DNA of 64,000 bases from an uncultured Candidatus Rokubacteria bacterium (GTDB taxonomy: Bacteria; Methylomirabilota; Methylomirabilia; Rokubacteriales; CSP1-6), in assembly GCA_963840495.1 (NCBI GenBank), contig CAWIZN010000044.1, positions 2,055-66,054 of the forward strand, written 5' to 3'. Position numbers and translations under genes: made by a program. Under the pieces are notes generated by a model. The model had not been told where the DNA came from and did no database searches. It worked only from the letters and a program-made list of their open reading frames with translations. Shown piece by piece: positions 11,544 through 28,403 of this stretch. The stretch's first letter is position 1. Each line of letters opens with the position of its first letter.

Positions 11544-12327
11544 TTGGAGGTGACCGATCTCAAGCAGGCGTTCGATCTCGCCGGGCGCGTGGCGGTGGTG
11601 ACGGGCGGCAATGGCGGCATCGGCCTCGGCATGGCGCGCGGCATGGCCGCGGCGGGCGCCGCCATCGTGGTGGCGGGCAGGAATCGCGACAAGAGCCGGC
11701 GCGCGGTGGCAGAGCTTGGAAGGCCTCGGCGCCAAGGCCGTGGCGATCGAGGTCGACGTCACGGACGAAGCCTCCGTCGTGGCGCTCGTGGCCCAGACGG
11801 TGGAGCGGCTCGGCCGCCTGGACGTGCTCGTGAACAATGCCGGGATCAATATCCGGAAGCCGCCGCACGAGCTGGATCTTCGCGAATGGCGGCAGGTGAT
11901 CGACACCAATCTCACCAGCGCGTTCATGGCGAGCCACGCCGCGCATCCGGTGATGAAGAAGCAGGGCGGCGGGAAGATCATCAATATCGGCTCGATGATG
12001 TCCATCTTCGGCGCGGCCTTCGCGCCGGCCTACGCGGCCTCGAAGGGCGGCATCGTGCAGCTCACGCGCTCCATGGCCACGGCCTGGGCGCCCCACCACA
12101 TCCAGGTCAACGCCGTCCTGCCCGGGTGGATCGACACCGAGCTCACGACCAATGCCCGCCGCGAGGTGCCCGGCCTGCACGAGCGCGTGCTGTCGCGCAT
12201 CCCCGAAGGCCGGTGGGGCGCGGGCGATGACATGGCGGGCGTCGCGGTCTTCCTCGCCAGCCGCGCCTCGGACTACGTCACGGGGACGGCGATCCCGGTC
12301 GATGGCGGCTATTCGATCATGAGCTAG
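11544..12327 (+). CDS. SDR-family oxidoreductase (FabG/gluconate-5-dehydrogenase-like), one frameshift near 11717
   Basis: TTG 11544 after a GGGGGAG RBS. The N-part VTDLKQAFDLAGRVAVVTGGNGGIGLGMA is in the frame of ORF 10029.., and the remainder is ORF 11611..12327 (NNAGIN, YAASKGG, PVDGGYS). Confidence 0.8.
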
Positions 12328-12330
12328 GTC

Positions 12331-13108
12331 ATGCGCGCTGCTCGCCTGCTGCTCCTGCTCTCCGCTCTGATCCTGTTCGGCTGTGCATCGGTGCCGCCGA
12401 TCGACGCCGTCGCCGCGCGGCCCGCGCCGCCCGCGGCGATCCGCTTCGGGGTGGACACCTTCGCCTTTCCCAATGAGAGCCGGAGCAAGAACCGGGGCAA
12501 GCCCGACCTCTATGCCAACTACTGCTTCGTGATGGTGCGCGCGGTCACGCAGTTCCACCGCTTCGCGCGCTTCGATCCGGCCGGCGACGAAGCTCTCATC
12601 GGATGAATACGAGGCCCGCGTGGCCCGGGTCGTGTCGCGCTCGCCCTGGGCAGACCCGCTCCCCGCCGACGATCGCGTCGTCATCCCCGGCTACGCCTCG
12701 CTCTACGAGCTGTCGCGCGCCGAGGAGAAGGCGGTCAAGGCCGGCCTCGGCTCGGCGTTCTGGAGCTGGGTGCACTGGACGAACTGGCGCGTCGTGTTTC
12801 CGATGCCCGGCGCCCAGCAGGAGCGGGTGGCGCGGGAGACGCTGGCCGAGCTCGCCGCCGGGCGGCCCGTGCAGTTCCTCGTGACGAACTTCCCGACCTG
12901 GGAGCTGAATCACACGGTCCTGGCCTACGACTACCGGAGCGTCGACGACGGCGTGATCGAGCTCGTGGTCTACGATCCCAATGATCCGTCCGCGCCGGGC
13001 ATCATCGACTACGACCGCCGGGACCGCCGCTTCCTCGCCACGCGGCTCTACGACACGGACCCGGGCCCGATCCGCGCCTTCCGCATGTACTACCAGCCGC
13101 TGCTCTAG
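12331..13108 (+). CDS. Hypothetical lipoprotein, one frameshift near 12600
   Basis: Lipobox LILFGC in MRAARLLLLLSALILFGCAS (ORF 12331..12606). It continues as ..EYEARVARVVSRSPW.. in ORF 12620..13108. It starts 3 nt after the upstream SDR and ends 3 nt before the KS gene. Confidence 0.6.
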
Positions 13109-13111
13109 AGC

Positions 13112-14297
13112 ATGGCCGTGGCGATCGCCGAGCGGATTGTCATCGAGGCGGGCGGCGTCGTGACGCCCATCGGCCAGGATCTCGAGGCCTTCTGGTCGGC
13201 GCTGGTCACGGGCGCGTCGGGCATCTCGCAGATCGAGCGCTTCCCGGTCGGCGATCTCCGCGTGGGGCGCGGCGGCGAGATCAAGAAGCTCTCGCGGATC
13301 AAGGCGTGGGGCCGCGTGCCGGACTGCCGCGCCACGCGGCTCCTCGTGTCGGCCGCCGACGAGCTGGCCGCGCAGGGCGGGATTCGCTCGGTGGCGCCCG
13401 AGCGCCTGGCCGTGGTCGTCGGCACCGCGCTCGGCGGCGTCGAGGAGGGCGAGCGGGCGCTGGCCGGTGACGCGCGCCGCCGCCGCCTGCGCGATGCCCT
13501 CTACGATGCGCCCGCCCACAACCTCGCCCGATGGCTCGGCGCGCGAGGGCCGGTCATCACCGTGTCGACGGCGTGCGCCTCGGGGGCCACGGCCATGGCG
13601 CTCGGCGCCGATCTCCTCCGGTCGGACGAGGCGGATGCGGTGGTGGCGGGCGGGTACGACGTCCTCTGCCGCTTCGTGATGCGCGGCTTCGATGCGCTGA
13701 GGGCGCTGACCCGCGACGAGATCCGTCCCTTCGACCGCCGCCGGAGCGGGCTCTTGCTGGGCGAAGCCGCCGCCCTGGTCCTCCTGCGCCGCGAGCGCGA
13801 TGCGGCGGGGCCGCGGCTCGGCACGCTGCTCGGCTATGGCAGCGCCAGCGACGCCGCGCACATCTCGGCGCCCGATCCCGAGGGGCAGGGGCTCGAGCGC
13901 GCGGTCCGCGCCGCGCTCCGCGCCGCGGGAATTGGCCCCGATGCCGTCGACTTCGTCAGCGCCCACGGCACCGGCACCCCGCTCAACGACCCGATCGAGG
14001 CGGCGGTCCTCAGCGCGCGTGCTCGGGCCGCGCACCCCGACCGTGCCCGTCAACTCGATCAAGCCGAGCCTCGGCCACACCATGGGCGCCGCGGCCGTGC
14101 TCGAGGCGCTGATGTGCCTCTATGCCTTCCGCCGCGGCCTCATTCCGCCCACGCTCCACCTCGACGAGCCCGATCCCGCCTGCGCGCTCGACCACGTGCG
14201 CGGCGCCGCACGCGCGGCGCGCCCGCGGATCAGCCTCAGCACCTCGCTCGGCTTCGGCGGCTGCAATGCCGCGCTCGTGCTCGAGGGCGCGCCATGA
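13112..14297 (+). CDS. Beta-ketoacyl-ACP synthase (KAS I/II type, catalytic), one frameshift near 14020
   Basis: Cys-His-His motifs VSTACASGATAM, VSAHGTGTPLND and (in the frame of ORF 13800..14297) NSIKPSLGHTMGAAAVLE. The C-terminus is SLGFGGCNAALVLEG. Confidence 0.85.
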
Positions 14298-15106
14298 CGC
14301 GGGCGCCGGTCGTGCGCGGCCTGGGCGTGATCTCCGGATGGGGCCGGGGCGCCGCCGCGCTGCCGGAGGACGCGCGCGCCGCGGCGGCGGGACGCCCGGT
14401 GCTCTCCCTCGGCCGCCTCGCGCGCGACGGCGACGCGTGGCGGCGCACCACGCGCGAGGGCCTGATCGCCGTCGCCGCCGTGGAGGCGGCGCTCGACGAC
14501 GCGGGCGCGGGCCCGGGGGCCATCGCCGGCGCGCGCACGGCGCTCGTCTACGTGACCGCGGCCGCCTACGGCCCCTCCAACCGGCGCTTCATCGAGGGCC
14601 GGGGCGGCAGCATCCGCTTCGCGGAGACGGCCCCGGCCATCGTGCCCGCCGAGGTGGCCATCGCGCTCGGCGTGTGCGGCCCCTACGCCATCCTCCTCGG
14701 CGGTCCGCCCACGACGCTCCGGGCCATCCACCATGCCGCGGTCCTCCTCGAGTCCGGCGCGTGCGACCGCGCGCTGGTCCTGGCCGTCGAGATCTTCGAG
14801 GAATGCGCGGACCTCTACGCCCGCGCCGGTCGATTGACCGCCCATCCCCTGGTCGAAGCCGCCGCCTGCCTCTGGCTCGAGCCCGGCCGGGGCACGCTGC
14901 ATCTCGAGCCCGGCCCACCGCGCCGGCCCAATGCCGCCCTCCGCCGGAGACTCGGCGAGACCTTCTCCGTCGAGCCCCTCGCCGCGCTGGATTTCTGGCG
15001 TCAGAGCCCCACGCGAGGCACACTGGAGCTGGCCGCCCGCTGGCGCGGTCAATCCACCCGGCTGCTCTGGACCGAAGCAATGATGCCCTTCGCGGAGGCC
15101 GTGTGA
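14294..15106 (+). CDS. Short KS-fold protein without catalytic triad (chain-length-factor/ApeC-like partner)
   Basis: ATG 14294 overlaps the upstream TGA (ATGA). About 270 aa within track ORF 13112..15106 (MTRAPVVRGLGVISGWG...). It has a thiolase-like pattern but no CxSG or HGTGT motifs. Confidence 0.6.
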   Translation: MTRAPVVRGLGVISGWGRGAAALPEDARAAAAGRPVLSLGRLARDGDAWRRTTREGLIAVAAVEAALDDAGAGPGAIAGARTALVYVTAAAYGPSNRRFIEGRGGSIRFAETAPAIVPAEVAIALGVCGPYAILLGGPPTTLRAIHHAAVLLESGACDRALVLAVEIFEECADLYARAGRLTAHPLVEAAACLWLEPGRGTLHLEPGPPRRPNAALRRRLGETFSVEPLAALDFWRQSPTRGTLELAARWRGQSTRLLWTEAMMPFAEAV

Positions 15107-15378
15107 CTGAGAAGGAAGTCCTGGACGACCTGAAGACGATCATCGTCGAGCGGCTGCGCTTCGATCCGGCTCGCGCCGCCGAGATGACCCTCGACACCAC
15201 GCTGCCCAAGGGCGTCGACGGCTCGCTCGGGCTCGACTCCCTCGACTTCATCGAGCTGTCCGTGGGCATCGAGGAGCGCTTCGGCATCGTGATCGACGAG
15301 CGCGAAGATCTGAGCGACGAGTTCCTCTCCCTCGAGAGCCTGGCGCGCTTCGTCCTGTCCAAGTCCGCGAAGGGATGA
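15103..15378 (+). CDS. Acyl carrier protein
   Basis: GTG 15103 overlaps the upstream stop (GTGTGA). 91 aa, VTEKEVLDDLKTIIVERL...LGLDSLDFIELSVGIEERF, carrying the DSL phosphopantetheine motif. Confidence 0.85.
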   Translation: MTEKEVLDDLKTIIVERLRFDPARAAEMTLDTTLPKGVDGSLGLDSLDFIELSVGIEERFGIVIDEREDLSDEFLSLESLARFVLSKSAKG

Positions 15379-16587
15379 CCCGGGCCGCGTCGCCGCGCGT
15401 CGTCGTCAGCGGGCTCGGGGTCGTGAGCCCGTACGGCGCCGGCGTCAAGAGCCTGTGGACGGGCCTGTCCGCGGGCGCCTGCGCCATCCGCCCGGTCACC
15501 GCCATCGAGACGGAGGGGCTGCGCTCCCGCGTGGCCGCGGAGGTGCCCGCGGAGGTGCTGGTGGGGCTCGGGGCGTCGCGCCGGCGCTCGAGGGCCGACC
15601 GGCTCGCGCTCGCGGCGGCGGCCGAGGCGATGGCCGACGCGGGGCTCGAGCGGACGGGATCGGCGCCAGGCGGCCTGCCTCGTCGGGGCGGTGGGCGGCG
15701 GCATGCACGAGGCCGAGGCGTGGTACTGGGATGAGGTGCGGAGCGGGCGGCCCGCGCCCGGGCGCCGGCGCGCCCTTCGCTCCGTCCTGCCGCGCGCGCA
15801 CGCCGACGCGGTGGCCTTCCGTTTCGGGCTCGAGGGCCCGCGCGAGACGCTGGTGATGGCGTGCGCATCCGGCGCCGCCTCCATCGCGCTCGGCGCGGAC
15901 CTGATCCGCGACGGCGTGGTCGACGTGGCGCTGGTCGGCGGCGTCGACGCGCTCACGCGCATCTGCTTCATGGGCTTCAATGCGCTCAAGCTGCTCGCTC
16001 CCGAGCCGTGCCGGCCCTTCGACCGCGACCGCCGCGGCATGTCCATCGGCGAGGCCGCCGCGTTCCTCGTCCTCGAGGAAGCCGGGCGCTGTCGCGCGCG
16101 CGGGGGGCGCGCCCACGCCGAGCTGGCCGGCGCGGCGATGACGACGGACGCCCATCACGTGACCGCGCCGCATCCGGAAGGGGAGGGGATGATCCGCGCC
16201 ATGTCGCTGGCGCTCGGATCAGCAGCCATGGCGTCGGGCGAGATCGGCTACGTCAATGCCCACGGCACGGGCACCCCCCAGAACGACCGCATCGAGGCCC
16301 TCGCGCTCGCCCGCGTGTTCGGGGAGGGCCGGGTGCTGGTGAGCTCGTCGAAGTCGCTCGTGGGCCACACCATGGCCGCCGCGGGCAGCGTCGAGGCCAT
16401 CGCCACCATCCTCGCCCTCGAGCACGGCCTCGTGCCCCCGACCGCCAACCTGACCGAGATCGATCCCGCGGTGCCCTTCGACTGCGTGCCCGGCGCGGCC
16501 CGTCCGGCCGACCTGGGGGCGGCGCTGTCCAACTCGTTCGGCTTCGGGGGGCAGAACGTGAGTCTGATCTTCAGCCGGTTCGCTTGA
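15375..16587 (+). CDS. Beta-ketoacyl-ACP synthase (catalytic), one frameshift near 15670
   Basis: ATGA overlap with the ACP stop. The N-part is ORF 15375..15734 (VVVSGLGVVSPYG) and the remainder is ORF 15691..16587, with LVMACASGAASI, VNAHGTGTPQND, SLVGHTMAAAGSVE and SFGFGGQNVSLIF. Confidence 0.85.
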
Positions 16588-16588
16588 C

Positions 16589-18823
16589 ATGACGGGCTCG
16601 TCCGAGCCAACCTCTCCACCCGAGCGGCGGCGGGTGGTCATCACCGGGATGGGCACGGTCAATGCGCTCACCTCGGGGGGGAGATCTGCAGTGGCGGAGG
16701 CGCTCGCCCTCGGCCGATCGGGGATCGGGCCGCTTCGCGGCTTTGTCCCGGAGCCGGGCACGAGCGGGCTCGCGGCCGAGATCGACGACGCGCGGCTGGC
16801 CGCCCTCGTCGATCCGGCCGAGGCCCGCAGGCTCTCGCGGATCTGCCGCCTCACGGTGGCGGCGTGCCGCTTTGCGGTGGAGGATTCGGGGGTCGGATCC
16901 GGGCCCGGGCTCGCCATCGTCGTCGGCTCGGAGCACGGCGATTTCCGCTCGAGCGAGGAGTTCGCGAGGGGATATCTGCAGCGCGGGCTCGCGGGGCTCT
17001 CGCCGATGATCTTCCCCAATACCGTGATGAACACGATGGCCTCGGTGGCGGCCATCGCGGTGGGCGCGCGGGCACCCTCGGTCACGCTCAACCAGCCGAC
17101 CATCGTCGGCGACCTCGCGGTGGCCCGGGCGGCGGCGATCGTCGCGCGCGGAGATGCGGAGGCGGCGGTCGCCGGCGGCGTGGACGAGATCTGCGCCCTC
17201 GTCTATCGCCACCTCCGCGGTCTCGGGGCGCTGTCGCCGATGCGGGGCGGCGGGCCCGAGGGCTGCCGGCCCTATGCGGCGGATCACAATGGCCCGGTGC
17301 TCGGCGAGGGCGCGACGTTTCTCGTGCTCGAGAGCCTCGACGCCGCGCGCGCGCGGGGGGCGAGCATCGTCGCCGAGCTCGTGGACCAGGCCTGGGGGAA
17401 TGTGCCGGCGCCGGCGCACGCGGCGCGGCCGGGTCGGGCGGATCGCGGCTCGCCCGTCGGCCGCCTGCTCGCCGCGCACGCGGTCGCCGGCTTCCGCCGC
17501 GTGTACGGCGCCGGGAACGGCGACGCCGGCGTCGACGACTGGGAGCGCGGGCTGCTGGCGCGCGATCTCGGGCCGCGCGATGCCCCGCCGCTGTCCCTGG
17601 CGCCGCTCTTCGGCCAGCACGGAGGCCTGGGCGCGCTGCGCGTGGCCGCGGCGGCGCTGGACGCGGCGCGCGGCGTATCCCCCGTGCTCGTCCACGGGAT
17701 CGCGCGCGGCGGCTGTCGGACCGCGCTGATCGTCGCGGCCCTGGACCCTGTGACGGCCGGGACCATGAGTGATCACCTGATCGTCATCCCCGTCCACAAC
17801 GAGGCCGGCACCATCGGCGACGTGGTGCGGGGCGCCGCGCGCCACGGCGACGTCCTCGTCGTGGACGACGGCTCGACGGACGGCTCGAGCGAGGTGGCGG
17901 CGTCCGCAGGGGCCGACGTGATCCGGCTCGCGCGGCGGGGCGGCAAGGGGGCGGCGCTCCGCCGTGGGCTGACCGAGGCGCTCGCGCGCGACGCCCAGCG
18001 CGTCGTCACCATGGACGGCGATGGCCAGCACGATCCCGACGACCTCCCGCGGCTCCTCGCGGCGGCCGCCCAGGCGCCGGACGCGCTCGTCATCGGTGGG
18101 CGACTGGGCGGGATCGGGCAGCGCGCGGCGGAGTTGCCCCTTCCCTCCGGCCGGGTCGCGGCGATACGCGTGGCCGGATTCTTCATCAACTGGCTCACCG
18201 GCGCTGCCGTGTCCGACACGCAATCGGGGTTTCGCGTCTACCCCGCCGGCCTGATCGACGCCGTGCGCCCGCGCCGCGGAGGCTTCGTCCTCGAGTCGGA
18301 GATGCTGGTCGGCGCGGCCGCCCGCGGGTGGCGCCTCGTCGAGGTGCCGGTGGCGGCCATCCACTTCGCCGAGCGGCGCAGCCGCTTCCGTCCCGTCCGC
18401 GATGGCACCGCCGTCGGCACCTACCTGGCGGCGCGGATCGCGAGGCGCTGGTGCGGGGAGGCGTGGCTGATCGCCCGGGCGCTCTGCCGTCCCTTCACCG
18501 CGGCGCGGCGGCGGCCGCGGCATCGCGAGCTCGGCCGAGTTCACCGTCGTCCCACCGCCACCATCCGGCGGCGTGGGCGGCGGCGGTCGGGGTGTTCACG
18601 CGTGGACCGCACGCTCGCGACATGGCGGGATTGGCTGCGCGATCCGCGGGTGCGGCGCATGCGCGTGGCGGCGGTGGCGACGGCCGCCACGCCCGCGCTG
18701 CTGGCCCTGGCCCTCGCCACGCCGGCGCTGCGGCGCCTCGGCCTCGATCCCATTCCCGCCTTCGTCGACCGGTTCTACTCCCAGGAGCGCCTGGCCGGCG
18801 CCGCGGCCGAGCCATCTCCGTGA
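16589..18823 (+). CDS. Non-catalytic KS-like domain (active-site Cys replaced by Gln) fused in frame to a GT2 polyprenyl-phosphate-type glycosyltransferase with a hydrophobic tail
   Basis: Single 744-aa ORF. The KS fold has SVTLNQPTIVG where the neighbouring KS genes have TACASG. From ATG 17765 it reads MSDHLIVIPVHNEAGTI..VVDDGSTDGS..TMDGDGQHDP.., a GT2 domain. No stop lies between the two domains. Confidence 0.7.
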   Translation: MTGSSEPTSPPERRRVVITGMGTVNALTSGGRSAVAEALALGRSGIGPLRGFVPEPGTSGLAAEIDDARLAALVDPAEARRLSRICRLTVAACRFAVEDSGVGSGPGLAIVVGSEHGDFRSSEEFARGYLQRGLAGLSPMIFPNTVMNTMASVAAIAVGARAPSVTLNQPTIVGDLAVARAAAIVARGDAEAAVAGGVDEICALVYRHLRGLGALSPMRGGGPEGCRPYAADHNGPVLGEGATFLVLESLDAARARGASIVAELVDQAWGNVPAPAHAARPGRADRGSPVGRLLAAHAVAGFRRVYGAGNGDAGVDDWERGLLARDLGPRDAPPLSLAPLFGQHGGLGALRVAAAALDAARGVSPVLVHGIARGGCRTALIVAALDPVTAGTMSDHLIVIPVHNEAGTIGDVVRGAARHGDVLVVDDGSTDGSSEVAASAGADVIRLARRGGKGAALRRGLTEALARDAQRVVTMDGDGQHDPDDLPRLLAAAAQAPDALVIGGRLGGIGQRAAELPLPSGRVAAIRVAGFFINWLTGAAVSDTQSGFRVYPAGLIDAVRPRRGGFVLESEMLVGAAARGWRLVEVPVAAIHFAERRSRFRPVRDGTAVGTYLAARIARRWCGEAWLIARALCRPFTAARRRPRHRELGRVHRRPTATIRRRGRRRSGCSRVDRTLATWRDWLRDPRVRRMRVAAVATAATPALLALALATPALRRLGLDPIPAFVDRFYSQERLAGAAAEPSP

Positions 18824-19998
18824 GGAGGCTCCTGCCGCGCGGCTACCTGTTCACCGTGCTCGGCATCGCGGTGGGCGTGGCGGGGCTGGTGGCGCTCGGG
18901 GCGATGGCCGAGCGCATCTCGCGCTTCATCGAGGGCGGCGACCGCTTCGTCCTCGGCCAGATCTCGGTGGCCGGCGAGGGCATGGGGATGGGCGCGGGCT
19001 TCACCGCGGGCGGGCTGCTCCGCGCCGCCAAGATCGCCGAGATCGCCCGGGTCCCCGGCGTGGCGGCCGCCCAGCCGCAGGTGATGCTGCCGCTCAAGAC
19101 CACGACCTCGCAGTTCCTCACGCTCACCCAGGAATTGGTGCTGGGCACGGACATGAGCGTGCCCATGGTCAACCGGAACTACCGCGAGCTGCCCGTCCGG
19201 GCCGGCCGCTTTCTCCAGGCGGGCGACCGCGGCGTCGCGGTGCTGGGAACGGATTTCGCCGCCGCGCGCAAGCTCGGCGTGGGCGGCCGCCTCGAGGTGG
19301 CCGGCCTTTCGTGGAGGATCGTCGGCGTGCTCGACAAGACGCTGACGGCGCCGGACCGGTTTGCGATGGTGACGATCGAGGACGCGCGCGACCTCTGGCT
19401 GCGCCGCGATCCGCTCCTCGTCCAGCTCTTCGGGGCGGGCGGGCTCGGGCGCGGGGATCTGAACTCCGGGGCCGCGGTCGCCTGGCAGCCCGGCGAGGAT
19501 CCCGACGCCGTCGCGCGCCGCATCCAGGAGTCCGTGGCGGGCGTCAACGTCACGATTCCCGGCGAGGTGAGCCGGCTCCTCAAGGAGTCGACGGCGTTCT
19601 TCTCGGCGCTGCTCCTGGGCATCGGCGCGCTGGGCCTGGTGATCGGGGGGCTGTCGCTGTCGAACACGGTGACGGCCGCGGTGTTCGAGCGCATCCGCGA
19701 CTTCGGCATCAAGCGCGCGCTCGGGGCGACCGATCTGCACCTGCTGCGCGAGGTCCTGGGCGAGGCGCTCGGCGTGAGCCTCACCGGCGGGGCGGCGGGC
19801 GTCGCGATCGCGCTCGGCATCGGCTGGCTCGTGGATCTGCGCATCCTGCGCGACGGCCAGCAGGTCTTCCTGTTCTCGCCGCGCCTGCTGCTCTTCGCGC
19901 TCGTGTTCTCGGTCGTGCTCGGCGCGCTCGCCGCGGCCTATGCCACGCTGCGCATCGCGCATCTGTCGCCCGCGGAAGCCATCCGCCGCGGCACCTGA
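18820..19998 (+). CDS. ABC transporter permease, FtsX/MacB/LolC-type
   Basis: GTG 18820 overlaps the upstream TGA (GTGA). It has TM1 (LFTVLGIAVGVAGLVALGAM), a large periplasmic domain, then three C-terminal TMs with the FGIKRALGA motif. Confidence 0.8.
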   Translation: MRRLLPRGYLFTVLGIAVGVAGLVALGAMAERISRFIEGGDRFVLGQISVAGEGMGMGAGFTAGGLLRAAKIAEIARVPGVAAAQPQVMLPLKTTTSQFLTLTQELVLGTDMSVPMVNRNYRELPVRAGRFLQAGDRGVAVLGTDFAAARKLGVGGRLEVAGLSWRIVGVLDKTLTAPDRFAMVTIEDARDLWLRRDPLLVQLFGAGGLGRGDLNSGAAVAWQPGEDPDAVARRIQESVAGVNVTIPGEVSRLLKESTAFFSALLLGIGALGLVIGGLSLSNTVTAAVFERIRDFGIKRALGATDLHLLREVLGEALGVSLTGGAAGVAIALGIGWLVDLRILRDGQQVFLFSPRLLLFALVFSVVLGALAAAYATLRIAHLSPAEAIRRGT

Positions 19999-20001
19999 CG
20001 G

Positions 20002-20708: not shown

Positions 20709-21155
20709 ATGACGTGGCCAGTGATGCGATCTCTGGGATGGACGTTGGCGCTCGGACTTCTGATGGGCGCCGTCCTGGCGCCGACCCCTGCGGATGCCCA
20801 GGCCGACGAGCGGGTCCGGGTGTTCAATGCGCCGCTGGACCGCGTGTGGACCGTGACGCGCTCGACGCTCAAGAGCCTCGGGTGGGACATCGACAAGGAG
20901 GACCGCGAGGGCGGCTGGATCCGCACCGACTCGCGGCGCCTCGAGGGCGAGGACTTCGGCGTGTATGCCAAGGGCACGCGGCAGCGGCTGCGCGTCGCCA
21001 TGAAGGCGCTCGACCCGACCCGGACGCAGGTGACGGTCGAGCGGCGCGTCTGGAAGCAGGAGCGCATCCTGTGGATGGACAAGGAGGAGGATATCCAGGT
21101 GCCGGACCAGCTCGCCGAGAAGAAGGTCCTCGACGACATCGCCGCGGCGCTCTGA
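20709..21155 (+). CDS. Hypothetical secreted protein
   Basis: AAGGAG RBS before the ATG. Signal peptide MTWPVMRSLGWTLALGLLMGAVLAPTPADA. No family recognised. Confidence 0.55.
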   Translation: MTWPVMRSLGWTLALGLLMGAVLAPTPADAQADERVRVFNAPLDRVWTVTRSTLKSLGWDIDKEDREGGWIRTDSRRLEGEDFGVYAKGTRQRLRVAMKALDPTRTQVTVERRVWKQERILWMDKEEDIQVPDQLAEKKVLDDIAAAL

Positions 21156-21283: not shown

Positions 21284-22030
21284 ATGACCCAATCGACACC
21301 GCCCCACCCCGTCCTGGAGAAATACTACCCGAGCGACGCTGACCGACAGTCGTTCGTGGGTGCGCTGTTCGACGGCGCCGCCCGACACTACAACCGCATC
21401 GGCACAATGCTGGACCTGGGCTCGGGTCCCTGGTACCGCCGCTGGGCTCTTCGCCGCGCGGGCCTCCGTCCCGGGATGCGGCTGCTCGACGTCGCAACCG
21501 GCACGGGCTTGGTGGCGCGCGGCGCGGTGGGCATCCTCGGCGAACCCGGTCGGGTGATCGGCGTCGATCCGAGTCGCGGCATGCTGCGGGAAGCGCGAAA
21601 GGCGCTCGCCGGCCCCCTTGTCCAGGGCAGAGCCGAGGCGCTGCCGTTCCGCGACGACCTGTTCGACATGCTCAGCATGGGCTTCGCCTTGCGCCATGTG
21701 CCCGACCTCGAGGCGGCGTTCCGGGAGTACCGCCGCGTCTTGAAGCCGGGCGGGCGCCTGGTTCTCCTCGAGGTGTCCCGTCCACACTCGCCCGTCTCCC
21801 GCTGGCTGATCCGGGTCCATCTCCAGCACATCCTGCCCTTGATGGCGCGAATCAGCACGAGAAGCCAGCCGGCCCAGCTCCTCATGAAATATTACTGGGA
21901 CACGATCGACCGGTGTGTTCCGCCGGAGACGATCCTGGATGTCTTGCGGCGTGGTGGCTTCGTCGACGTCAACCGACGGACGCTCTTCGGATTCCTCAGC
22001 GAGTACTCGGCCGCGAAACCGTCGCCGTAG
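21284..22030 (+). CDS. Class I SAM-dependent methyltransferase (UbiE/MenG-like)
   Basis: Lies within ORF 21224..22030. Motif I is LLDVATGTGLVA, followed by FDMLSMGFALRHV and LKPGGRLVLLE. The start could be 21224 or 21284. Confidence 0.75.
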   Translation: MTQSTPPHPVLEKYYPSDADRQSFVGALFDGAARHYNRIGTMLDLGSGPWYRRWALRRAGLRPGMRLLDVATGTGLVARGAVGILGEPGRVIGVDPSRGMLREARKALAGPLVQGRAEALPFRDDLFDMLSMGFALRHVPDLEAAFREYRRVLKPGGRLVLLEVSRPHSPVSRWLIRVHLQHILPLMARISTRSQPAQLLMKYYWDTIDRCVPPETILDVLRRGGFVDVNRRTLFGFLSEYSAAKPSP

Positions 22031-22109: not shown

Positions 22110-23882
22110 ATGGGCTCTCGCGGTTCGGGCGCCGCGGCCGCGATGGTGGCGTCGATCGCGCTCGCGCTCGTCTTGCTCCTGCCCGGTCTCGGCGCCGCGC
22201 CGTTCGACGATCCAGGGGAAGGCCAGCACGCGGAGATCGCCCGGGAGATCCGGGCGAGCGGCGACTGGCTCACGCTCAGGCTGAACGGCGTCCGCTATCT
22301 CGACAAGCCGCCCCTCCTCTACTGGCTTGCCGCGGGAGCCTTCGCGCTCTTCGGCGACGGCGAGTGGGCGGCTCGGCTCGTGCCGCTCGGGGGCGCGGTG
22401 CTCGCGGCAGCGGCGACGGCGCTCTTGGGCGCCCGCCTCCTCGGCCCCTGGGCGGGCCTCGGCGCGGCGGGCGCGCTCCTGTCGTCGGCGCTGTTCGTCG
22501 TCTTCGGCCGCTACGTGCGCCCGGAGACGCTCTTCGTCGCGGCCATTCAATGGGGCCTGGCGGGGCTCCTGCTGGGCCTGGCCGCCCCCGCGGAGAGCGG
22601 ACGGCGCCGCGTCTGGCTCCTCGTGGGCTGCGTCGGGCTCGCGCTCGCCTCGCTCGCCAAGGATCCGCTCGGGCTCATCGGCCCGCTCGGGGCCATCGCC
22701 CTGGCCCTGTCACTCGGCGGCCGACTCGCGGTCGGCGCGGCTGCCATGGGAGGGCGTGGCCGTCCTCATGATCCTGGGCTTCGGATGGTATCTCGTCGCG
22801 GCGATGCTGAGCCCCGGCTTCCTCTGGTACACGGTGGTCGACAACCACGTCCTGAACGCGCTCCGGCTGCGGCAGTTCCCCGACGAGGACGTCCCGCTCT
22901 CCTCCGCGGAGTTCCTCGCGGTGAGCGGGCTCGGCGCGTTTCCCTGGATCATCCCGGCCGGGCTCCAGGTGATCGCCCTCTGGCCGGCGGCGCGCGTGGC
23001 GCGATCCGGCGGAGACGGCGTGGGTGGCGCTCGCGCTGTGGACGACGGGACTGATCGCCCTCTTCGCGCTGTCTCCCTTCAAGCTGCCCCACTATGCGCT
23101 TCCCGCGTATCCGGCCATCGCGCTCCTCGCCGTTCGCTTCTGGAAGGAGCGCTCAGTCGGGTGGGCGGGCGCTCGTCGGCCTCCACCTGGCGCTCTTCGC
23201 CGCGCTCGCCGTCGGCGCCTTTCTCGTGGGGATGGGGGACGGCCGCGCCTTCGTGGACACCGTCTTCTCGGCGACGGATGTCTACACGCGGAAGGAGGCG
23301 GTGGTGGGCCAGGCCTCCCCGCTGCCCCCATGGTCTGCGCTCGGACCGCTGGTGACGCGCATGGCGATGATCTTCGGCGGGGGTGCGCTCGTCCTCGCGG
23401 GGGCGTTCGCGGCGCGGGCGGGGCGGCTCGGCTTCGCCGCGGTCCTCGCCACCATGCTCGCCGTGATGCCGCTCGCGACGGGGGCCGCCGCGCTCGTCGC
23501 CTCGGGGAGGGCGGTGGCGAGGATGGCCGAGGATCTCAAGCGGGAGATGGCGCCGGGCGATCTCCTCGTCCACGAGGGGCCGATCGAGAACTCCGGCGCG
23601 CTCGAGCTGTACTCGGGCCGGCGTCCTGCCCTCCTCGACGCCCGGCGAAGCGTCCTCGGCATCGGCGCCACCTATCCGGACGCGGCCGAGACGTTCTGGG
23701 ATGCGGGTGATCTGGCCCGCGCGTGGCAGTCCGGCCGCCGCGTCTTCCTCGTGACGCCGCGCGCGCCCGAGCAGAGCGCCGTCGCATCGTTGCCCCCCGG
23801 CACCGCGCATCTGCTGGAAGTCCGGAACGGCCGCTGGCTCTACAGCAACGTCGGCCGTCGGGGGCCTCAGCATGCGCGATAG
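22110..23882 (+). CDS. ArnT/PMT-family (GT39-like) membrane glycosyltransferase, three frameshifts as given
   Basis: DDPGEGQHAEIAREI..RYLDKPPLLYWL (ORF 21915..23054) is followed by FGWYLVAAMLSPGFLWYTVVDNHVLN (ORF 22327..), then ALFALSPFKLPHYALPAYPA (ORF 23024..), then the C-terminal part in ORF 23094..23882. The breaks are near 22735, 23000 and 23150. Confidence 0.7.
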
Positions 23883-24038: not shown

Positions 24039-24059
24039 GGTGAAGCGGGTCCGTTCCGG

Positions 24060-25481
24060 GTGACCGAGTACCTCCGCACGCTCTTCCTGCACCCGCCCTC
24101 GTTCGACGGCTTCGACGGGGGCGCCGGCTCACGGTACCAGGCCCGGCGGGAGATCCGATCGTTCTGGTACCCGACCTGGCTCGCCCAGCCGGCCGCGCTC
24201 GTGCCGGGCTCCCGCCTCGTCGACGCGCCGCCCGACGGCCTCTCGCTCGACGACGTGCGCCCGCTCGCCCGCGCCTACGATCTCTGCGTGATGCATACGA
24301 GCACGCCGTCCTTCGCCGCCGACGTGAAGGTCGCGGCGGCGTTGAAAGCCGAGAACCCGGGGCTGTCGATCGGCATGGTCGGCGCCGCGGTCGCGGTGGC
24401 GCCCGAGGCCTCGATGCGCAGCAACCCGGCGGTCGACTGGGTGGCGCGGGGCGAATTCGACCTGACCGTGCAGGAGATCGCCCAGGGGCGGCCGCTCGCG
24501 CGCGTCGCCGGGCTCGCGTACCGCGACGATGGCCGCGTCGCCTATACGCCCGATCGGCCGGTGCTCGAGGACATGGACCGGCTGCCCTTCGTCACACCCG
24601 TCTACAAGCGTGACCTCACCGTCGAGAACTACGCCATCGGGTATCTCCGCCACCCCTACGTGTCGCTCTACACCGGCCGCGGCTGCCGCTCGAAGTGCAC
24701 GTTCTGCCTGTGGCCGCAGACGGTGGGCGGGCAGCGGTATCGCACGCGCAGCGTCGGGCACGTGGCGGAGGAGATGGCCGAGGCGGTGCGGCTGTTTCCC
24801 CAGGTGCGCGAGTTCTTCTTCGACGACGACACCTTCACCGACGACCTGCCGCGGGCGGAGGCCATCGCCCGGCGGCTCGGGCCGCTCGGCATCACGTGGT
24901 CGGTGAACGCCAAGGCCACCGTGCCGCACGCGACGCTCAAGGTGCTGAAGGACAATGGCCTGCGCCTGCTCCTGGTGGGCTACGAGTCGGGGAGCCAGCA
25001 GATCCTGAACAACGTGAAGAAGGGCGTGCGGCTCGACGCGGCGCGCCGGTTCACGCGGGAGGCGAAGGCGCTCGGCATCACCATCCACGGGACGTTCATC
25101 CTGGGGCTGCCCGGGGAGACGCGCGAGACCATCGCCGAGACCATCCGCTTCGCGCGCGAGATCGATCCCGACACGATCCAGGTCTCCCTCGCCGCGCCGT
25201 ACCCCGGGACCGCGCTCTACGAGGAGGCGCAGCGGAACGGCTGGCTCGAGGACGACGGCGGCCTCGTGGACGGGGCGGGCGTCCAGCAGAGCGCCCTGGG
25301 CTATCCTCATCTCCCGCGGACCGAGATCTTCCGATCGCTCGACGAATTCTACCGCCGCTTCTACTTCCGGCCGCGCAAGATGATCTCGCTCGCCGCGGAG
25401 ATGCTGGGGGACCGCCACGTGATGCGGCGGCGGCTCCGCGAGGGGCGCGACTTCCTCCGCTTCCTCCGCGCCCGCCGGTAG
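24060..25481 (+). CDS. B12-binding-domain radical SAM enzyme, HpnJ-like
   Basis: Intact 473-aa ORF with a GTG start. LFLHPPSFDGFDGGAGSRYQARREIRSFWYPTWLAQP, radical-SAM cluster GRGCRSKCTFCLWP, and IQVSLAAPYPGT. From memory the overall pattern matches the HpnJ family. Confidence 0.75.
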   Translation: MTEYLRTLFLHPPSFDGFDGGAGSRYQARREIRSFWYPTWLAQPAALVPGSRLVDAPPDGLSLDDVRPLARAYDLCVMHTSTPSFAADVKVAAALKAENPGLSIGMVGAAVAVAPEASMRSNPAVDWVARGEFDLTVQEIAQGRPLARVAGLAYRDDGRVAYTPDRPVLEDMDRLPFVTPVYKRDLTVENYAIGYLRHPYVSLYTGRGCRSKCTFCLWPQTVGGQRYRTRSVGHVAEEMAEAVRLFPQVREFFFDDDTFTDDLPRAEAIARRLGPLGITWSVNAKATVPHATLKVLKDNGLRLLLVGYESGSQQILNNVKKGVRLDAARRFTREAKALGITIHGTFILGLPGETRETIAETIRFAREIDPDTIQVSLAAPYPGTALYEEAQRNGWLEDDGGLVDGAGVQQSALGYPHLPRTEIFRSLDEFYRRFYFRPRKMISLAAEMLGDRHVMRRRLREGRDFLRFLRARR

Positions 25482-25500
25482 CGCGCTGCGGGGTCCGTCC

Positions 25501-26244
25501 ATGAGCCTGCTCACCGGCCGGGTCGCCCTCGTGACGGGGGCGTCGCGCGGCATCGGCCGCGCCTGCGCCATCAAGCTCGCCACCCTCGGCGCCGCCGTCG
25601 TCGTGAACTTCAATACGAGCGCGACGGCGGCGCAAGGCGTGGTCGAGGAGATCCGGGCGGGTGGGGGAGACGCCCGAGCCGTGCAGGGCGACGTGAGCCG
25701 GCTCGCCGCCGCCCAGGGCGTGGTCAAAGCCGCCATCGACGCCTACCGCCGGCTCGACATCCTCGTGAACAATGCGGGAACGACGCGCGACGGGCTGCTC
25801 GCCGCCATGAGCGAAGAGGACTTCGACGGCGTCATCCAGCAGAACCTCAAGAGCGTCTTCAACTGCAGCAAGGCCGTCCTGCGGCAGATGATGAAGCAGC
25901 GCTACGGGCGCATCGTCAACGTGACGTCGATCGCCGGCGTGGTCGGCAACCCGGGCCAGACCAACTACTCGGCGGCGAAGGCCGGCATCATCGGCTTCAC
26001 CAAGGCGATGGCCAAGGAGTACGGGGCGCGCAACATCGCGGTCAATGCCGTCGCGCCCGGCTATGTCCCCACCGCGCTCACCAGCGGCGTGCCGCCGGAC
26101 ATCGCGGCGGGCATCGTCCGGCTCACCGCCCTCGGCCGGATGGGGACGGCGGCGGAGGTCGCCGCGGTGGTCGCCTTTCTCGCCTCCGACGAGGCGAGCT
26201 ACGTCACCGGCCAGGTCGTGGCGGTTGACGGGGGACTCACGTAG
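25501..26244 (+). CDS. fabG: 3-oxoacyl-ACP reductase
   Basis: 247 aa with VTGASRGIGRA, NNAGTTRD, YSAAKAG and VDGGL. Confidence 0.85.
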   Translation: MSLLTGRVALVTGASRGIGRACAIKLATLGAAVVVNFNTSATAAQGVVEEIRAGGGDARAVQGDVSRLAAAQGVVKAAIDAYRRLDILVNNAGTTRDGLLAAMSEEDFDGVIQQNLKSVFNCSKAVLRQMMKQRYGRIVNVTSIAGVVGNPGQTNYSAAKAGIIGFTKAMAKEYGARNIAVNAVAPGYVPTALTSGVPPDIAAGIVRLTALGRMGTAAEVAAVVAFLASDEASYVTGQVVAVDGGLT

Positions 26245-26259
26245 CAGGCTGCTGCTAGA

Positions 26260-27174
26260 GTGGAGTGCATGCCGCTGTCACTGACGCCCGAGCACGCGGT
26301 CCCGCGACCGCGCTGGCACTCGCACGCCTATAACCGCGCCGATCTCTACCGGCTCGCGGGGGCCCTCGGGTGGCTGCCGCGACGCGCGAGGCTCGCCCTG
26401 GCGCGGCGCATCGGACGGATGATGCCGCGGCTCATGCCCGCCGAGGAAGGGATCGTCCGGCGCACGCTCGCGCGCGTGACCGGCGCCACCGGCTCCCGGC
26501 TCGACGCGCTCACCGTCGGGACCTTCACGGACTTCGCGATGTGCTTCAGCGATCTCGTGTCCACGAATCGTCAGCCCGCGGCGCGCCTGCACTCCTACGT
26601 GGCGCGCGTGGAAGGCGCCGAGCGTGTCGCGCATCTCCAGGGTGGGCTCATCTCGCTCACCGCCCACGTGGGCAACTGGGAGCTGGCCGGTCGTCTCCTC
26701 GCGGGCCGCGCGGGCCGGACCACGCACGTGGTCGTGGCCGAGGACGAGGCCCGCGATCTCGGGCGCTGGGTTCGGCGTGACGGCGAGGGCGTGCGCTTCG
26801 TGTCCCGGTCGCGCCCGACCGTCTCCCTCGAGCTGGTGGCGGCGCTCCGGCGCGGGGAGGTGGTCGCCGTGCAGGGCGACCGGGCGCTCGGCACGCGCGG
26901 CGACGTCCTCCTCCCCTTCTTCGGAGCGCCCGCGCCATTCCCGCTCGGGCCATTCGTCCTCGCCCGTGCCGTCGGGGTGCCACTCGTCCCCGCGTTCTGC
27001 GTGCTCGATGAGAGCTACCGGTACACCGTGACGGTGACCGAGCCGCTGACCGTTGCGCGCGGTGGCGAGGAAGAGGCGGCTCGCACCTGGGTGGCCGCCC
27101 TCGAGCGGATCGTGGGCGAGCGCCCGACCCAGTGGTTCAACTTCTTCGACGTGTGGAGCCCGCCCGCCGCGTGA
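26260..27174 (+). CDS. LpxL/HtrB-family (lysophospholipid/lipid A type) acyltransferase
   Basis: 304 aa with the HX4E-type motif TAHVGNWELAG and, downstream, VAVQGDRA..PFFG. Confidence 0.7.
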   Translation: MECMPLSLTPEHAVPRPRWHSHAYNRADLYRLAGALGWLPRRARLALARRIGRMMPRLMPAEEGIVRRTLARVTGATGSRLDALTVGTFTDFAMCFSDLVSTNRQPAARLHSYVARVEGAERVAHLQGGLISLTAHVGNWELAGRLLAGRAGRTTHVVVAEDEARDLGRWVRRDGEGVRFVSRSRPTVSLELVAALRRGEVVAVQGDRALGTRGDVLLPFFGAPAPFPLGPFVLARAVGVPLVPAFCVLDESYRYTVTVTEPLTVARGGEEEAARTWVAALERIVGERPTQWFNFFDVWSPPAA

Positions 27175-28403
27175 CGACCGGCGGCGAGGCGGCGGAGGCG
27201 CTCGGCGCCCTCGGCCGGGAGGAGGCGGCCCGGAGCGCGGCGTTTCTGCGCGGGGCATTGCCCGGTCCGCTCCGACCCGCGTTCGGCGAAGCCTTCATCC
27301 GCTCGCATATCCTGTACGGCGAGTTCGTCTGCCGGCTCGTCCTCGGAATCGCGCGGGAGTGCGGGATGGCCACGGCGCTCGGCGCGCCGGGCGACGCCGG
27401 GGAGATCGCGGCGCGCGCAGGACTCGAGGCTCCGCAGGCGCGGGTGCCGGTCGATTGGATGCTTCGATTTCTCGCCGCGCGCGGGTGGGTCGCGGAGATC
27501 CCGGGCGGGGCAAATCGCCGGTATCGGTCGCGCGGCGAGCTGCCGCTGCTCGACGCGTTGCCGGTGCGGCAGGAGCAGCAGCGCTGGGACCCGTCGTGGA
27601 TGCCGGCGTATGTGCTGGCGGAGACGGTTGCGCGGGACTACCCGGCCTTCCTGCGCGGCGAGGTGGCGGGCGAGGACGTGCTGTTCGCTCCGCGCCGGCT
27701 CCGGCTCTGGGTCGACTACTTCTCGAACGACAATGGCCTCTACGCGGTCAATAACCGCGTCGGTGCCGTCGCCGTCGCGGATTGGCTGCCCGGGCCCGGC
27801 AGCTCGATTCTCGAGCTGGGCGGCGGGCTCGCCAGCGGCGCGCTCGCGCTGCTGGCGGAGCTCGAGGCGAGGGACCGTCTCCGCGACGTCCGGGGCTACC
27901 GCTTCACCGAGCCCGTGTCGGCGTTCCTGCGCCGAGGAGAGCAGACGCTGCGCGATCGGTACCCGGCATTGGGAGGCCTGAGCTTCGGCGCGCTCGACAT
28001 GAACCAGGGGTTCGGCGAGCAAGGGGTGGCGCCCGCGAGCGTGTCCGTCGTCTACGCGGTGAATACGCTGCACGCCGCACGTGATCTCGGGTTCACGTTG
28101 GAGGAAGTGCACCGGGCGCTGTCGCCCGGCGGCCGGCTCGTCATCTCCGAATGCGTGCCACCGCCCGAGCCCATCTATGCGGACTTCGTCTTCAATCTGA
28201 CAGAGGCATTTCGGTCTCCGCGGCTCGATCCGCGGCAGCGCCTGGGCGGCGGGTTCCTCGGGCTCGAAGACTGGACGGCGGTCCTGGAGGCGGCGGGATT
28301 CGAGGACGTCCGCGTCCTGCCCGACGTCGCGGCCATCCGCGCCGAGGTGCCTGATTTCAGCGTCGCGGCGATCGGCGGCGTGCGGTCCGGCGGAAAGCGG
28401 TGA
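27171..28403 (+). CDS. SAM-dependent methyltransferase with N-terminal dimerisation/substrate domain
   Basis: GTG 27171 overlaps the upstream TGA (GTGA). Motif I is SILELGGGLASGA, followed by LSPGGRLVISE. Lies within track ORF 27132..28403. Confidence 0.65.
   Translation: MTTGGEAAEALGALGREEAARSAAFLRGALPGPLRPAFGEAFIRSHILYGEFVCRLVLGIARECGMATALGAPGDAGEIAARAGLEAPQARVPVDWMLRFLAARGWVAEIPGGANRRYRSRGELPLLDALPVRQEQQRWDPSWMPAYVLAETVARDYPAFLRGEVAGEDVLFAPRRLRLWVDYFSNDNGLYAVNNRVGAVAVADWLPGPGSSILELGGGLASGALALLAELEARDRLRDVRGYRFTEPVSAFLRRGEQTLRDRYPALGGLSFGALDMNQGFGEQGVAPASVSVVYAVNTLHAARDLGFTLEEVHRALSPGGRLVISECVPPPEPIYADFVFNLTEAFRSPRLDPRQRLGGGFLGLEDWTAVLEAAGFEDVRVLPDVAAIRAEVPDFSVAAIGGVRSGGKR

Follow-up and report, generated by a model that had tools for sequence, protein, structure and literature searches.

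A conserved gene cluster of Rokubacteria with two ketosynthase pairs, an LpxL-family acyltransferase and HpnJ is related to aryl polyene and xanthomonadin loci

The cluster for aryl polyene lipids (APEL; apeA-R in Escherichia coli CFT073 and Xenorhabdus doucetiae) unites a type II polyketide synthase (PKS)-like ketosynthase (KS) and its non-catalytic partner with a dedicated acyl carrier protein (ACP), a FabG-type ketoreductase, a methyltransferase, dedicated envelope export and ApeJ, whose two halves match a Dpm1-like GT2 glycosyltransferase and an LPLAT/LpxL acyltransferase. The pathway was proposed from the structure of the X. doucetiae product, and ApeJ is proposed to place N-acetylgalactosamine onto lipid phosphate and then to acylate it with the ApeE-bound chain (10.1101/2020.12.19.423268). 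Xanthomonadin clusters have a conserved neighbourhood of a KS, an unusual chain-length factor, a Dpm-synthase-like GT2 and often a halogenase (PMC3691225). The rhizobial lipid A cluster for fatty acids with a very long chain (VLCFA; acpXL-fabZXL-fabF2XL-fabF1XL-adh-lpxXL) combines paired FabF-like genes with an ACP of its own and an acyltransferase of the LpxL family. The ArnC/ArnT and PpgS/GT-C systems of periplasmic glycosylation join a Dpm1-like GT2 and an ArnT/PMT-like GT-C glycosyltransferase in one locus. HpnJ is encoded in hpnI-hpnJ-hpnK loci of Burkholderia and Mycetohabitans; Burkholderia needs it for bacteriohopanetetrol cyclitol ether, and its presumed reaction is the contraction of a glucosamine ring (PMC13459092). 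Parts of each of these systems recur in a gene cluster at positions 11544-28403 of a 64,000-nucleotide stretch of an uncultured Candidatus Rokubacteria bacterium (GCA_963840495.1, contig CAWIZN010000044.1, positions 2,055 to 66,054), which is called the window throughout. Rokubacteria/Methylomirabilota are abundant, uncultured soil bacteria, of whose envelope lipids essentially nothing is known to us. Literature on Rokubacteria and aryl polyenes, and surveys of biosynthetic gene clusters in Methylomirabilota, yielded incidental co-mentions only.

After frame correction the cluster comprises 17 genes on the same strand (Table 1); it is genuine and conserved. An initial annotation, made from the sequence alone, had placed the named functions at or near these positions, and Pfam and NCBIfam bore out this inventory with corrections: it had overlooked the DUF8321/8322 lipoprotein, the PKS nature of the large methyltransferase and at least nine frame breaks. 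The product predicted there, an exported, glycosylated and methylated acyl lipid of unknown structure, remains the best guess. We tentatively read the cluster as a form, particular to Rokubacteria, of the pathway type known from aryl polyenes and xanthomonadins, "type II PKS plus lipid anchor". Judged by protein comparison the locus is an evolutionary relative of this family, and it fails most of the family's defining gene list. The earlier statement that it fits neither the Ape nor the AcpXL paradigm stands in so far as it is canonical in neither sense; the locus is not equidistant from the two, since KS, ACP, GT2, acyltransferase and the halogenase of relatives all lean towards Ape/xanthomonadin.

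Relatives were found by searching one genome from each species with the ORF (open reading frame) spanning GT2 and the preceding KS-like protein, and were mapped by tblastn, gene calls and precomputed Pfam annotation. Full-length matches were obtained only in Methylomirabilota/Rokubacteria metagenome-assembled genomes (MAGs) and in a few evidently mis-binned contigs; as far as seen, the cluster is restricted to Rokubacteria. Co-conservation, which the initial annotation had proposed to check, was found: at least 12 independent Methylomirabilota/Rokubacteria contigs share the order [SDR]-lipoprotein-[LpxL type A]-KS1-KSl1-ACP-KS2-KSl2-GT2(::halogenase)-FtsX-ABC-small secreted protein-GT-C-HpnJ-serA (SDR, short-chain dehydrogenase/reductase; KSl, KS-like partner), with protein identities of 45-97% across Rokubacteria. 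The core runs lipoprotein-(LpxL)-KS-KSl-ACP-KS-KSl-GT2-FtsX-ABC-small periplasmic protein and is usually followed by GT-C and HpnJ, and the lineage-variable parts are the halogenase, the methyltransferases, FabG and an adenylation/carrier cassette. Because halogenase, methyltransferases and cassette are the variable accessories, we regard this as a specialised-metabolite locus. What had been called a supercluster is indeed a co-conserved gene set, organised as a conserved core with swappable tailoring parts, as the differences in loci L008 and L089 illustrate.

The subclade of the window (L088, L089 and L090; 78-97% identity) carries FabG, a 102-aa protein, a type B LpxL and a methyltransferase after HpnJ. 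Set beside these closest relatives, the window shows no halogenase domain, no gene for the 102-aa protein (about 400 bp) and no 5.8-kb divergent cassette of five genes between UbiE and GT-C (L089 2298-7936, minus strand; partly L087 1-3423). The cassette encodes a carrier protein, an FAD oxidoreductase, a FadD/MenE-like adenylating enzyme, a 104-aa protein and a 602-aa second halogenase-like flavoprotein. L087 was considered as evidence that the KS module and the module from GT-C to the C-methyltransferase are unlinked; this was ruled out by L089, where the cassette is seen to be inserted and UbiE and the ABC genes still lie upstream.

For comparison with the Ape system we used the annotated CFT073 ape cluster together with the E. 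coli fab genes in direct protein comparisons. The two ketosynthases described at first as Cys-His-His enzymes do retain the triad (TACASG/HGTGT/LGHTMG in KS1, MACASG/HGTGT/VGHTMAAAG in KS2), and each is followed by a KS-fold ORF without the active-site Cys. A 744-aa KS-like and GT2 ORF that had been taken for one gene proved to be a run-on of KSl2 into GT2; KSl2 is a separate gene in all relatives. In a small, distance-based neighbour-joining tree (200 bootstraps; E. coli references, without Rokubacterial housekeeping FabF), KS1 grouped with ApeO and the Xanthomonadales cluster KS (89% bootstrap) and KS2 with a GT2-adjacent deltaproteobacterial KS (81%). All of these formed one clade (98.5%) with E. 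coli-type FabF and FabB outside, so that the phylogeny suggested in the initial annotation places KS1 and KS2 with the ApeO clade rather than with the E. coli housekeeping enzymes. KS1 is 34% identical to ApeO and 32% to FabF, KS2 36% to FabF and 33% to ApeO. No cluster KS groups with ApeR in this tree; identities to ApeR are 28-29% over the trimmed alignment and 30-37% in local blastp segments. APEL loci have one KS heterodimer plus ApeR where the Rokubacterial cluster has two predicted KS heterodimers.

Regarding the partners, KSl1 has no NCBIfam match, and KSl2 reaches 23.4 bits against PF13723 (ApeC-type chain-length factor), below the cut-off of 25. KSl1 was considered as an ApeC homolog and rejected by hhalign; at a detectable level the Cys-less partners appear not to be homologs of ApeC. 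The recently deposited PDB entry 9s5h is a heterodimer of 412-413-aa "3-oxoacyl-ACP synthases"; its chain B is the second-best PDB match of KS2 (279 bits) and its chain C is among the top three of KSl2 (112 bits). A literature search for 9S5H gave no relevant paper. The nearest non-Rokubacterial relative of KS2 lies in a deltaproteobacterial MAG (L030 9533-13330), in a four-gene mini-module of a weakly FabA-like hot-dog protein, a GT2, the KS and a Cys-less partner between metG and a UvrD helicase gene. This locus holds only the module among housekeeping genes and gives no clue to a product.

The single ACP of the initial annotation is indeed the only PP-binding protein in the window. It is closest to ApeE (33-34% identity), and its best NCBIfam match is to an AmcB-type ACP (43 bits, below cut-off). 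A second carrier protein occurs only in the L089 cassette; the window lacks a tandem ApeE/ApeF arrangement. GT2 is 31% identical to the N-terminal half of ApeJ (residues 9-163), and the acyltransferase is 30% identical to its C-terminal half (residues 363-552, E 2e-19). The cluster shares with the Ape family an ApeO-type KS (by tree placement and 33-34% identity) and the GT2 plus LPLAT-family acyltransferase of ApeJ/ApeD-type anchoring. In NCBIfam, GT2 scored below cut-off against PpgS (94.8 bits) and AglJ (92.9 bits); an identity with HpnI was rejected, there being no tblastn match and only a weak one to HpnB.

The resemblance to xanthomonadin-type clusters of Xanthomonas and Lysobacter (L015, L026) lies in the same local KS-KSl-GT2-halogenase order. 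In most Rokubacterial relatives a flavin-dependent halogenase is fused to GT2, in contrast to the xanthomonadin clusters, and it is missing from the window. The fused ORFs are 779-798 aa long, 779-782 aa in L081 and L090 (L081 16426-18765, L090 3296-5644, L003 11158-13554) and contain the motifs GxGxxG (GGGPGG) and WxWxIP (WFWYIP); no description of such a fusion was found in the literature searched. The Rokubacterial halogenase is 39-42% and the GT2 40-44% identical to the counterparts in Xanthomonadales loci. These Xanthomonadales loci, found in the same scan, carry ApeH-, ApeC-, ApeQ-, ApeM-, ApeL- and ApeE-like genes, and xanthomonadin loci possess LolA and MMPL genes, a ligase for aryl acids and a pair of dehydratases of the FabA/FabZ type, none of which is present in the Rokubacterial block.

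At the far end of the locus, the 410-aa methyltransferase matched the C-methyltransferase (C-MT) of CurJ (5thy) in a profile search of the PDB (2.1e-22 over query residues 93-399), followed by DisA (1.2e-20), AprA MT2, LovB CMeT, PsoF and PksCT. The top Foldseek matches of its AlphaFold2 (AF2) model (pLDDT 88) were the C-MTs of AprA MT2, CurJ, DszA and PksCT (6d6y, 5thy, 6cca and 5mpt; E 1e-18 to 1e-15, TM 0.64-0.74), and the similarity to CurJ, DisA, AprA and LovB is full-length, including the N-terminal helical subdomain. On the strength of profile and model it is to be regarded as a PKS-type C-MT, in place of the ApeB of APEL loci. In PKS C-MT domains the methyl group goes to the alpha carbon of beta-keto or malonyl intermediates carried by an ACP. 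The identity of this enzyme connects the distal end of the locus with the KS and ACP genes, and a methyl-branched chain is what it predicts. Of the two methyltransferases reported at first, both of which are present, the large one would act on the ACP-bound chain and not in generic lipid methylation. The other is UbiE-like (131 bits in NCBIfam, short of the cut-off); the window and L089 have it, L088 does not, and relative to L088 it is an insertion. FabG, confined to the window subclade, shares 47% identity with E. coli FabG and 41% with ApeQ. The SDR at the upstream end best matches KduD, gluconate-5-dehydrogenase and glucose-1-dehydrogenase rather than FabG (NCBIfam, intact L003 copy). Its adh_short_C2 match begins at profile position 37, with the N-terminal Rossmann motif TGGNGGIG in another frame, and it stands upstream of the cluster in one subclade only, neither L007 nor L008 having it.

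The ABC pair is of the MacB/LolCDE type (type VII), combining an FtsX permease with MacB periplasmic core and a LolD/MacB-like ATPase. The permease has only weak NCBIfam matches, to ADOP and MacB, and the ATPase best matches LolD (186.8 bits against a cut-off of 307.75) and MacB, below the equivalog cut-offs. No MacA/TolC-like fusion or outer-membrane partners and no LolA-type acceptor are encoded in the cluster. The periplasmic candidates beside the pair are the DUF8321/8322 lipoprotein and the 148-aa secreted protein. The latter, which Pfam and NCBIfam place in no family, comes after the ABC genes in every lineage and is kept in L007, L008, L088, L089 and L090. The two halves of the lipoprotein share one frame in L002-L004 and form a single gene. 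Its Cys64 and His193 are invariant; in the AF2 model (pLDDT 78) Cys64 opens a long helix and His193 lies on a strand. Foldseek gave no significant match in the PDB (best E 0.1), the top weak matches being all papain-fold, a hint only that the protein might be a papain-like periplasmic Cys-His hydrolase or transacylase. The DUF8321/8322 family counts 431 clusters at 50% identity.

The data show directly which genes are present, which catalytic motifs they keep, how far they are conserved and where the ketosynthases fall in a tree with E. coli references; each chemical step of the following scheme is taken from homology. KS1/KSl1 and KS2/KSl2 heterodimers would elongate a chain on the dedicated ACP, the stand-alone C-MT would methylate beta-ketoacyl-ACP intermediates and FabG would reduce them, with dehydration and enoyl reduction either left undone or borrowed from the housekeeping fatty acid synthase; the chain would be methyl-branched and at least partly reduced. 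The Dpm1-like GT2 would place a hexose or hexosamine on lipid phosphate, and the LpxL-family acyltransferase would transfer the ACP-bound chain to this glycolipid, as proposed for the ApeJ halves in aryl polyene lipids. The MacB-type ABC pair, together with the lipoprotein and the small secreted protein, would remove the product from the inner membrane and so replace ApeM/ApeL/ApeN, and the ArnT-like GT-C and HpnJ, which the cluster has in addition to the APEL set, would introduce changes in the head group or in a second acceptor.

Several results weigh against the aryl-polyene-like reading. The window contains no dehydratase, thioesterase, starter ligase, malonyl transferase, LolA or MMPL gene (Pfam/NCBIfam and tblastn), largely as the initial annotation had it; tblastn with ApeA-D, G-I, K-N, P and a FabA-like protein gave no match, either across the 64 kb of the window or in ten related loci. 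Queries with ApeI, ApeP and a FabA-like protein gave no real match at E<=0.05 in the same set, and none of the cluster ORFs has a hot-dog Pfam domain. Of the APEL set, ApeH, ApeI/ApeP, ApeK, an ApeR-type KS, a second ACP, ApeL (LolA), ApeM (MMPL), ApeN, ApeG and ApeA have no counterpart in the Rokubacterial cluster, nor has ApeC: the hhalign profile probability for KSl1 and ApeC is 0.2%, amounting to no detectable similarity. By raw score against the PDB, KS2 is nearer to Thermus FabF (290 bits) than to ApeO structures (about 180 bits). Distant members of the DUF8321/8322 family occur in unrelated neighbourhoods, by which the lipoprotein was ruled out as a universal marker of this cluster type. 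L008 keeps the block from the lipoprotein through the small secreted protein and has neither GT-C nor HpnJ, and at least nine reading frames in or adjoining the cluster are broken in comparison with intact orthologs. HpnJ, by score and identity, is a strict ortholog of the hopanoid cyclitol-ether enzyme. Finally, as all examples come from one phylum, the conserved order may partly mirror shared ancestry.

The role of HpnJ bears on a less likely alternative in which the locus is composite: an acyl-chain/GT2/ABC module would stand apart from a GT-C and HpnJ envelope module, with no single product, and GT-C and HpnJ would serve hopanoid side-chain synthesis or glycosylation of lipid A or protein, being neighbours merely by lineage-specific synteny. 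Besides the core without GT-C and HpnJ in L008, this explanation draws on the gap between GT-C and HpnJ, which at 177 nt is the largest in the window and extends to 588 nt in L003, on two opposite-strand genes between GT-C and HpnJ in L006, and on the housekeeping gene serA, spaced as tightly as the cluster genes. HpnJ, initially termed HpnJ-like, is indeed a radical-SAM enzyme and, more exactly, a full-length HpnJ ortholog above the TIGR03471 equivalog cut-off (Table 1), 64% identical to HpnJ of Burkholderiales (Mycetohabitans). The HpnJ domain is reported solely in genomes having squalene-hopene cyclase and HpnH, and hopanoid genes (hpnP) are reported in Methylomirabilota/Rokubacteria (PMC12324291). 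HpnJ may belong to hopanoid metabolism rather than to the pathway of the cluster. The Mycetohabitans gene, however, lies in the context hpnI-hpnJ-hpnK-hpnL, while the neighbours here are GT-C, FabG, the acyltransferase and the C-MT: Mycetohabitans HpnI, HpnK and HpnL gave no tblastn match at 1e-3 in the window or ten loci, and hpnI, hpnK and hpnL were not found within 10 kb in any examined locus. In L007 (KS about 68% identical) the block from the lipoprotein through HpnJ is intact between unrelated flanks, HpnJ beginning at the GT-C stop. Moreover, FabG, the acyltransferase and the C-MT lie beyond HpnJ in the window and in L088-L090, and pathway genes therefore flank GT-C and HpnJ on both sides.

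That HpnJ and the ArnT-like GT-C are working parts of a polyketide-lipid pathway is in itself unlikely, and could take two forms. HpnJ might contract a hexosamine placed by GT2 to an aminocyclitol, giving a non-hopanoid cyclitol lipid, or a methyl-branched (in relatives halogenated) acyl chain might be joined covalently to the cyclitol/glucosamine head group of a bacteriohopanepolyol. If true, the Rokubacterial outer membrane would contain a conjugate not described before, either hopanoid-polyketide or cyclitol-acyl.

We consider it improbable that the cluster remodels lipid A, with the dedicated ACP and KS pairs supplying a secondary acyl chain of unusual kind (long or branched), which an LpxXL-like enzyme would install, and an ArnC/ArnT-like pair glycosylating lipid A, by analogy with rhizobial AcpXL/LpxXL and 4-amino-4-deoxy-L-arabinose modification. 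The acyltransferase does belong to the lipid A acyltransferase family PF03279, GT2 is Dpm1/ArnC-like and ArnT is the sole PDB or NCBIfam relative of GT-C (5ezm, 1.2e-24). VLCFA of Bradyrhizobium lipid A are reported to be covalently linked to a hopanoid (PMC5613085), which would offer a rationale for the neighbourhood of HpnJ. Yet a FabZXL-type dehydratase has no counterpart in or near the cluster, and all NCBIfam equivalogs of the LpxL family stay far below cut-off, the best being phosphatidylinositol mannoside acyltransferase at 70 bits; the acyltransferase aligns instead with the C-terminal half of ApeJ, and the ketosynthases group with the ApeO type. Halogenase, PKS C-MT and adenylation/carrier cassette are features of natural-product and not of lipid A loci, and set the cluster apart from the rhizobial one. 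Judged by NCBIfam models, none of the Rokubacterial ACP, KS and acyltransferase proteins reaches an equivalog cut-off. Both glycosyltransferases likewise remain far below the equivalog cut-offs of the ArnC/ArnT and PpgS/GT-C systems, and no genes for sugar-nucleotide modification or for a flippase accompany them.

A true aryl-polyene or xanthomonadin-like pigment is quite improbable; its missing starter ligase, dehydratases and thioesterase would have to come from other parts of the genome or, in relatives, from the inserted cassette. In its favour are the KS tree and the homology of GT2 and halogenase to xanthomonadin loci, and the exchange of halogenase for methyltransferase recalls brominated xanthomonadins as opposed to methylated aryl polyenes. 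An AMP-binding enzyme, a carrier protein and a halogenase occur in L089 and L087, and a gene of the benzoate-CoA ligase family (TIGR02262, 589 bits against a cut-off of 375) adjoins the block in L007 (20820-22475, minus strand). The AMP-binding enzyme (FadD/MenE-like) of L087 and L089 is, however, unrelated to ApeH, and the L007 ligase is convergent to HpnJ and may be catabolic; an aspartate-oxidase-like flavoprotein gene is also convergent there at the end of the block. ApeI/ApeP- or FabA/FabZ-like genes were not found within +/-10 kb in about 12 loci, ApeH, XanB2, ApeK, ApeL and ApeM are missing, and the C-MT is predicted to act on the chain rather than as an aryl methyltransferase like ApeB.

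Gene calls were based on the third-position GC frame plot and on homology to intact orthologs. G+C is 70-75% across 11544-28403, because of which most of the raw ORF list consists of spurious frames, and the frame plot shows the coding frame switching within several genes. GT-C is a single gene in four frame segments that takes in the ORFs 22327-23355 and 23094-23882, intact as one ORF of 589-646 aa in L003, L007 and L089; the ArnT-like identity given as GT39 by the initial annotation thus stands, and its coordinates do not. Third-position GC is 0.85-1.0 and ortholog identity 55-77% on both sides of every break. An unrelated FGGY kinase upstream is frame-broken as well, ORFs are fragmented over the rest of the window, and the nearest public relatives, ENA contigs with long-read-style names ("contig_N", ERZ250395xx), are broken at other positions. 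For these reasons the breaks were treated as assembly indels, and they look like those of a long-read assembly. Real decay, in which the organism makes nothing from a cluster of pseudogenes, is very unlikely on the same grounds and because the three GT-C indels sum to -3, even if one of them, a 5-nt deletion, is atypical of homopolymer error.

Table 1. Genes of the cluster and disruptions of their reading frames (positions in the window).
Feature	Position	Strand	Basis
SDR oxidoreductase	11544..12327	+	Pfam adh_short_C2 1.7e-57
DUF8321/DUF8322 periplasmic lipoprotein, lipobox LFGC	12331..13108	+	PF26995, PF26997 (precomputed Pfam)
KS1, Cys-His-His ketosynthase	13112..14297	+	Pfam, motifs
KSl1, truncated (270 aa), highly diverged KS-fold partner, Cys-less	14294..15106	+	Pfam ketoacyl-synt 30.7 bits on L003 copy
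Acyl carrier protein, GLDSLD motif	15103..15378	+	PF00550 30.2 bits
KS2, Cys-His-His ketosynthase	15375..16587	+	Pfam, motifs
KSl2, full-length KS-fold partner, Thr replacing active-site Cys	16589..17740 (approximate end)	+	Pfam/NCBIfam, alignment with relatives
Dpm1/PpgS/ArnC-like GT2, DGDGQHD motif	17762..18823	+	PF00535
FtsX/MacB-type permease with periplasmic MacB_PCD	18820..19998	+	PF12704, PF02687
ABC ATPase, LolD/MacB/DevA type	20002..20676	+	PF00005
Small secreted protein, 148 aa, signal peptide, about 115 aa mature	20709..21155	+	no family
UbiE/MenG-like methyltransferase, accessory	21284..22030	+	PF01209 5.9e-31; start codon from L089
ArnT/PMT_2-like GT-C, about 590 aa, broken frame	22110..23882	+	PF13231, PF02366
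HpnJ, B12-binding radical-SAM enzyme	24060..25481	+	TIGR03471 761.6 bits vs 577.6 cut-off
FabG-type 3-oxoacyl-ACP reductase	25501..26244	+	TIGR01830 298.0 bits vs 297.75 cut-off
LpxL/LPLAT-family acyltransferase, type B paralog, paired with C-MT	26260..27174	+	PF03279 5.5e-27
Predicted stand-alone PKS-type C-methyltransferase, 410 aa	27171..28403	+	profile vs PDB; fold
Frame break, SDR	about 11.6-11.7 kb	+	vs intact orthologs of related contigs
Frame break, lipoprotein	about 12.6 kb	+	vs intact orthologs
Frame break, KS1	14014/14016	+	vs intact orthologs
Frame break, KS2	about 15650	+	vs intact orthologs
Frame disruption, 744-aa run-on ORF	KSl2/GT2 junction	+	two genes, different frames, in every relative
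Probable frame break, GT2	C-terminus	+	C-terminal about 90 aa garbled-looking
Three frame breaks, GT-C	-5 nt at 22727, +1 at 22981, +1 at 23153	+	mapped against L089

The start/stop junctions listed in the initial annotation are all present (stop 13108/ATG 13112, ATGA 14294, GTGA 15103, ATGA 15375, TGACATG 16587/16589, GTGA 18820 and GTGA 27171). Such close packing also extends beyond the cluster, with serA only 25 nt past its last gene. The promoter/terminator scan found no convincing terminator within the cluster, the single match falling inside the GT-C gene, and the Rfam scan gave no match inside it. Housekeeping genes flank the cluster; upstream are those for RNase D and an 8-TM protein, downstream serA and the gene of a LuxR-type regulator.

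The upstream membrane protein (8748-9701, plus strand; 317 aa, two repeats of about 155 aa, about eight transmembrane helices) is conserved, and neither Pfam nor NCBIfam assigns it to a family. In relatives its gene directly precedes the SDR (50-nt gap in L081); in the window the FGGY kinase (9974-11472), missing at that position in all relatives, intervenes. An 18-nt inverted-repeat pair, GGCACTGGGGCAAGTTGC, at 9744-9761 and 9908-9925 brackets 146 nt just upstream of the kinase, a third copy with 2 mismatches is found at 40030-40047 (0.01 expected by chance), and a promoter-like site TTGACA-17-TATCCT (9934-9962) precedes the kinase; the region may be an insertion scar or a repeated element. 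About 250 nt of intergenic DNA downstream of an ABC-F gene (5722-5974) are 74% identical to L087 3981-4217, intergenic DNA just upstream of GT-C, and may be a dispersed repeat. The region around 32100-38450 is syntenic with L087-L090, where it holds opposite-strand type II secretion/pilus genes (secretin, PilN, T2SSK, T2SSJ), and its ORFs are fragmented in the window here also. Far outside the cluster, a c-di-GMP-I-GGC riboswitch aptamer was identified at 53769-53850 on the minus strand (RF03167, 71.7 bits against a gathering threshold of 59).

The core logic of the locus is that of a known cluster family, and its association with HpnJ is conserved; the cluster could serve as a test case of whether HpnJ works outside the hpnI-J-K context. 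In it the widespread "type II PKS plus lipid anchor" design appears stripped of a dehydratase, ligase, thioesterase and MMPL/LolA export of its own; a MacB-type exporter, a PKS C-MT or GT2-fused halogenase, a GT-C and HpnJ stand there instead. As a defined gene set it lends itself to heterologous expression and to targeted lipidomics of soil enrichments, and methyl-branched or halogenated glycolipids of this phylum could be environmental biomarkers.

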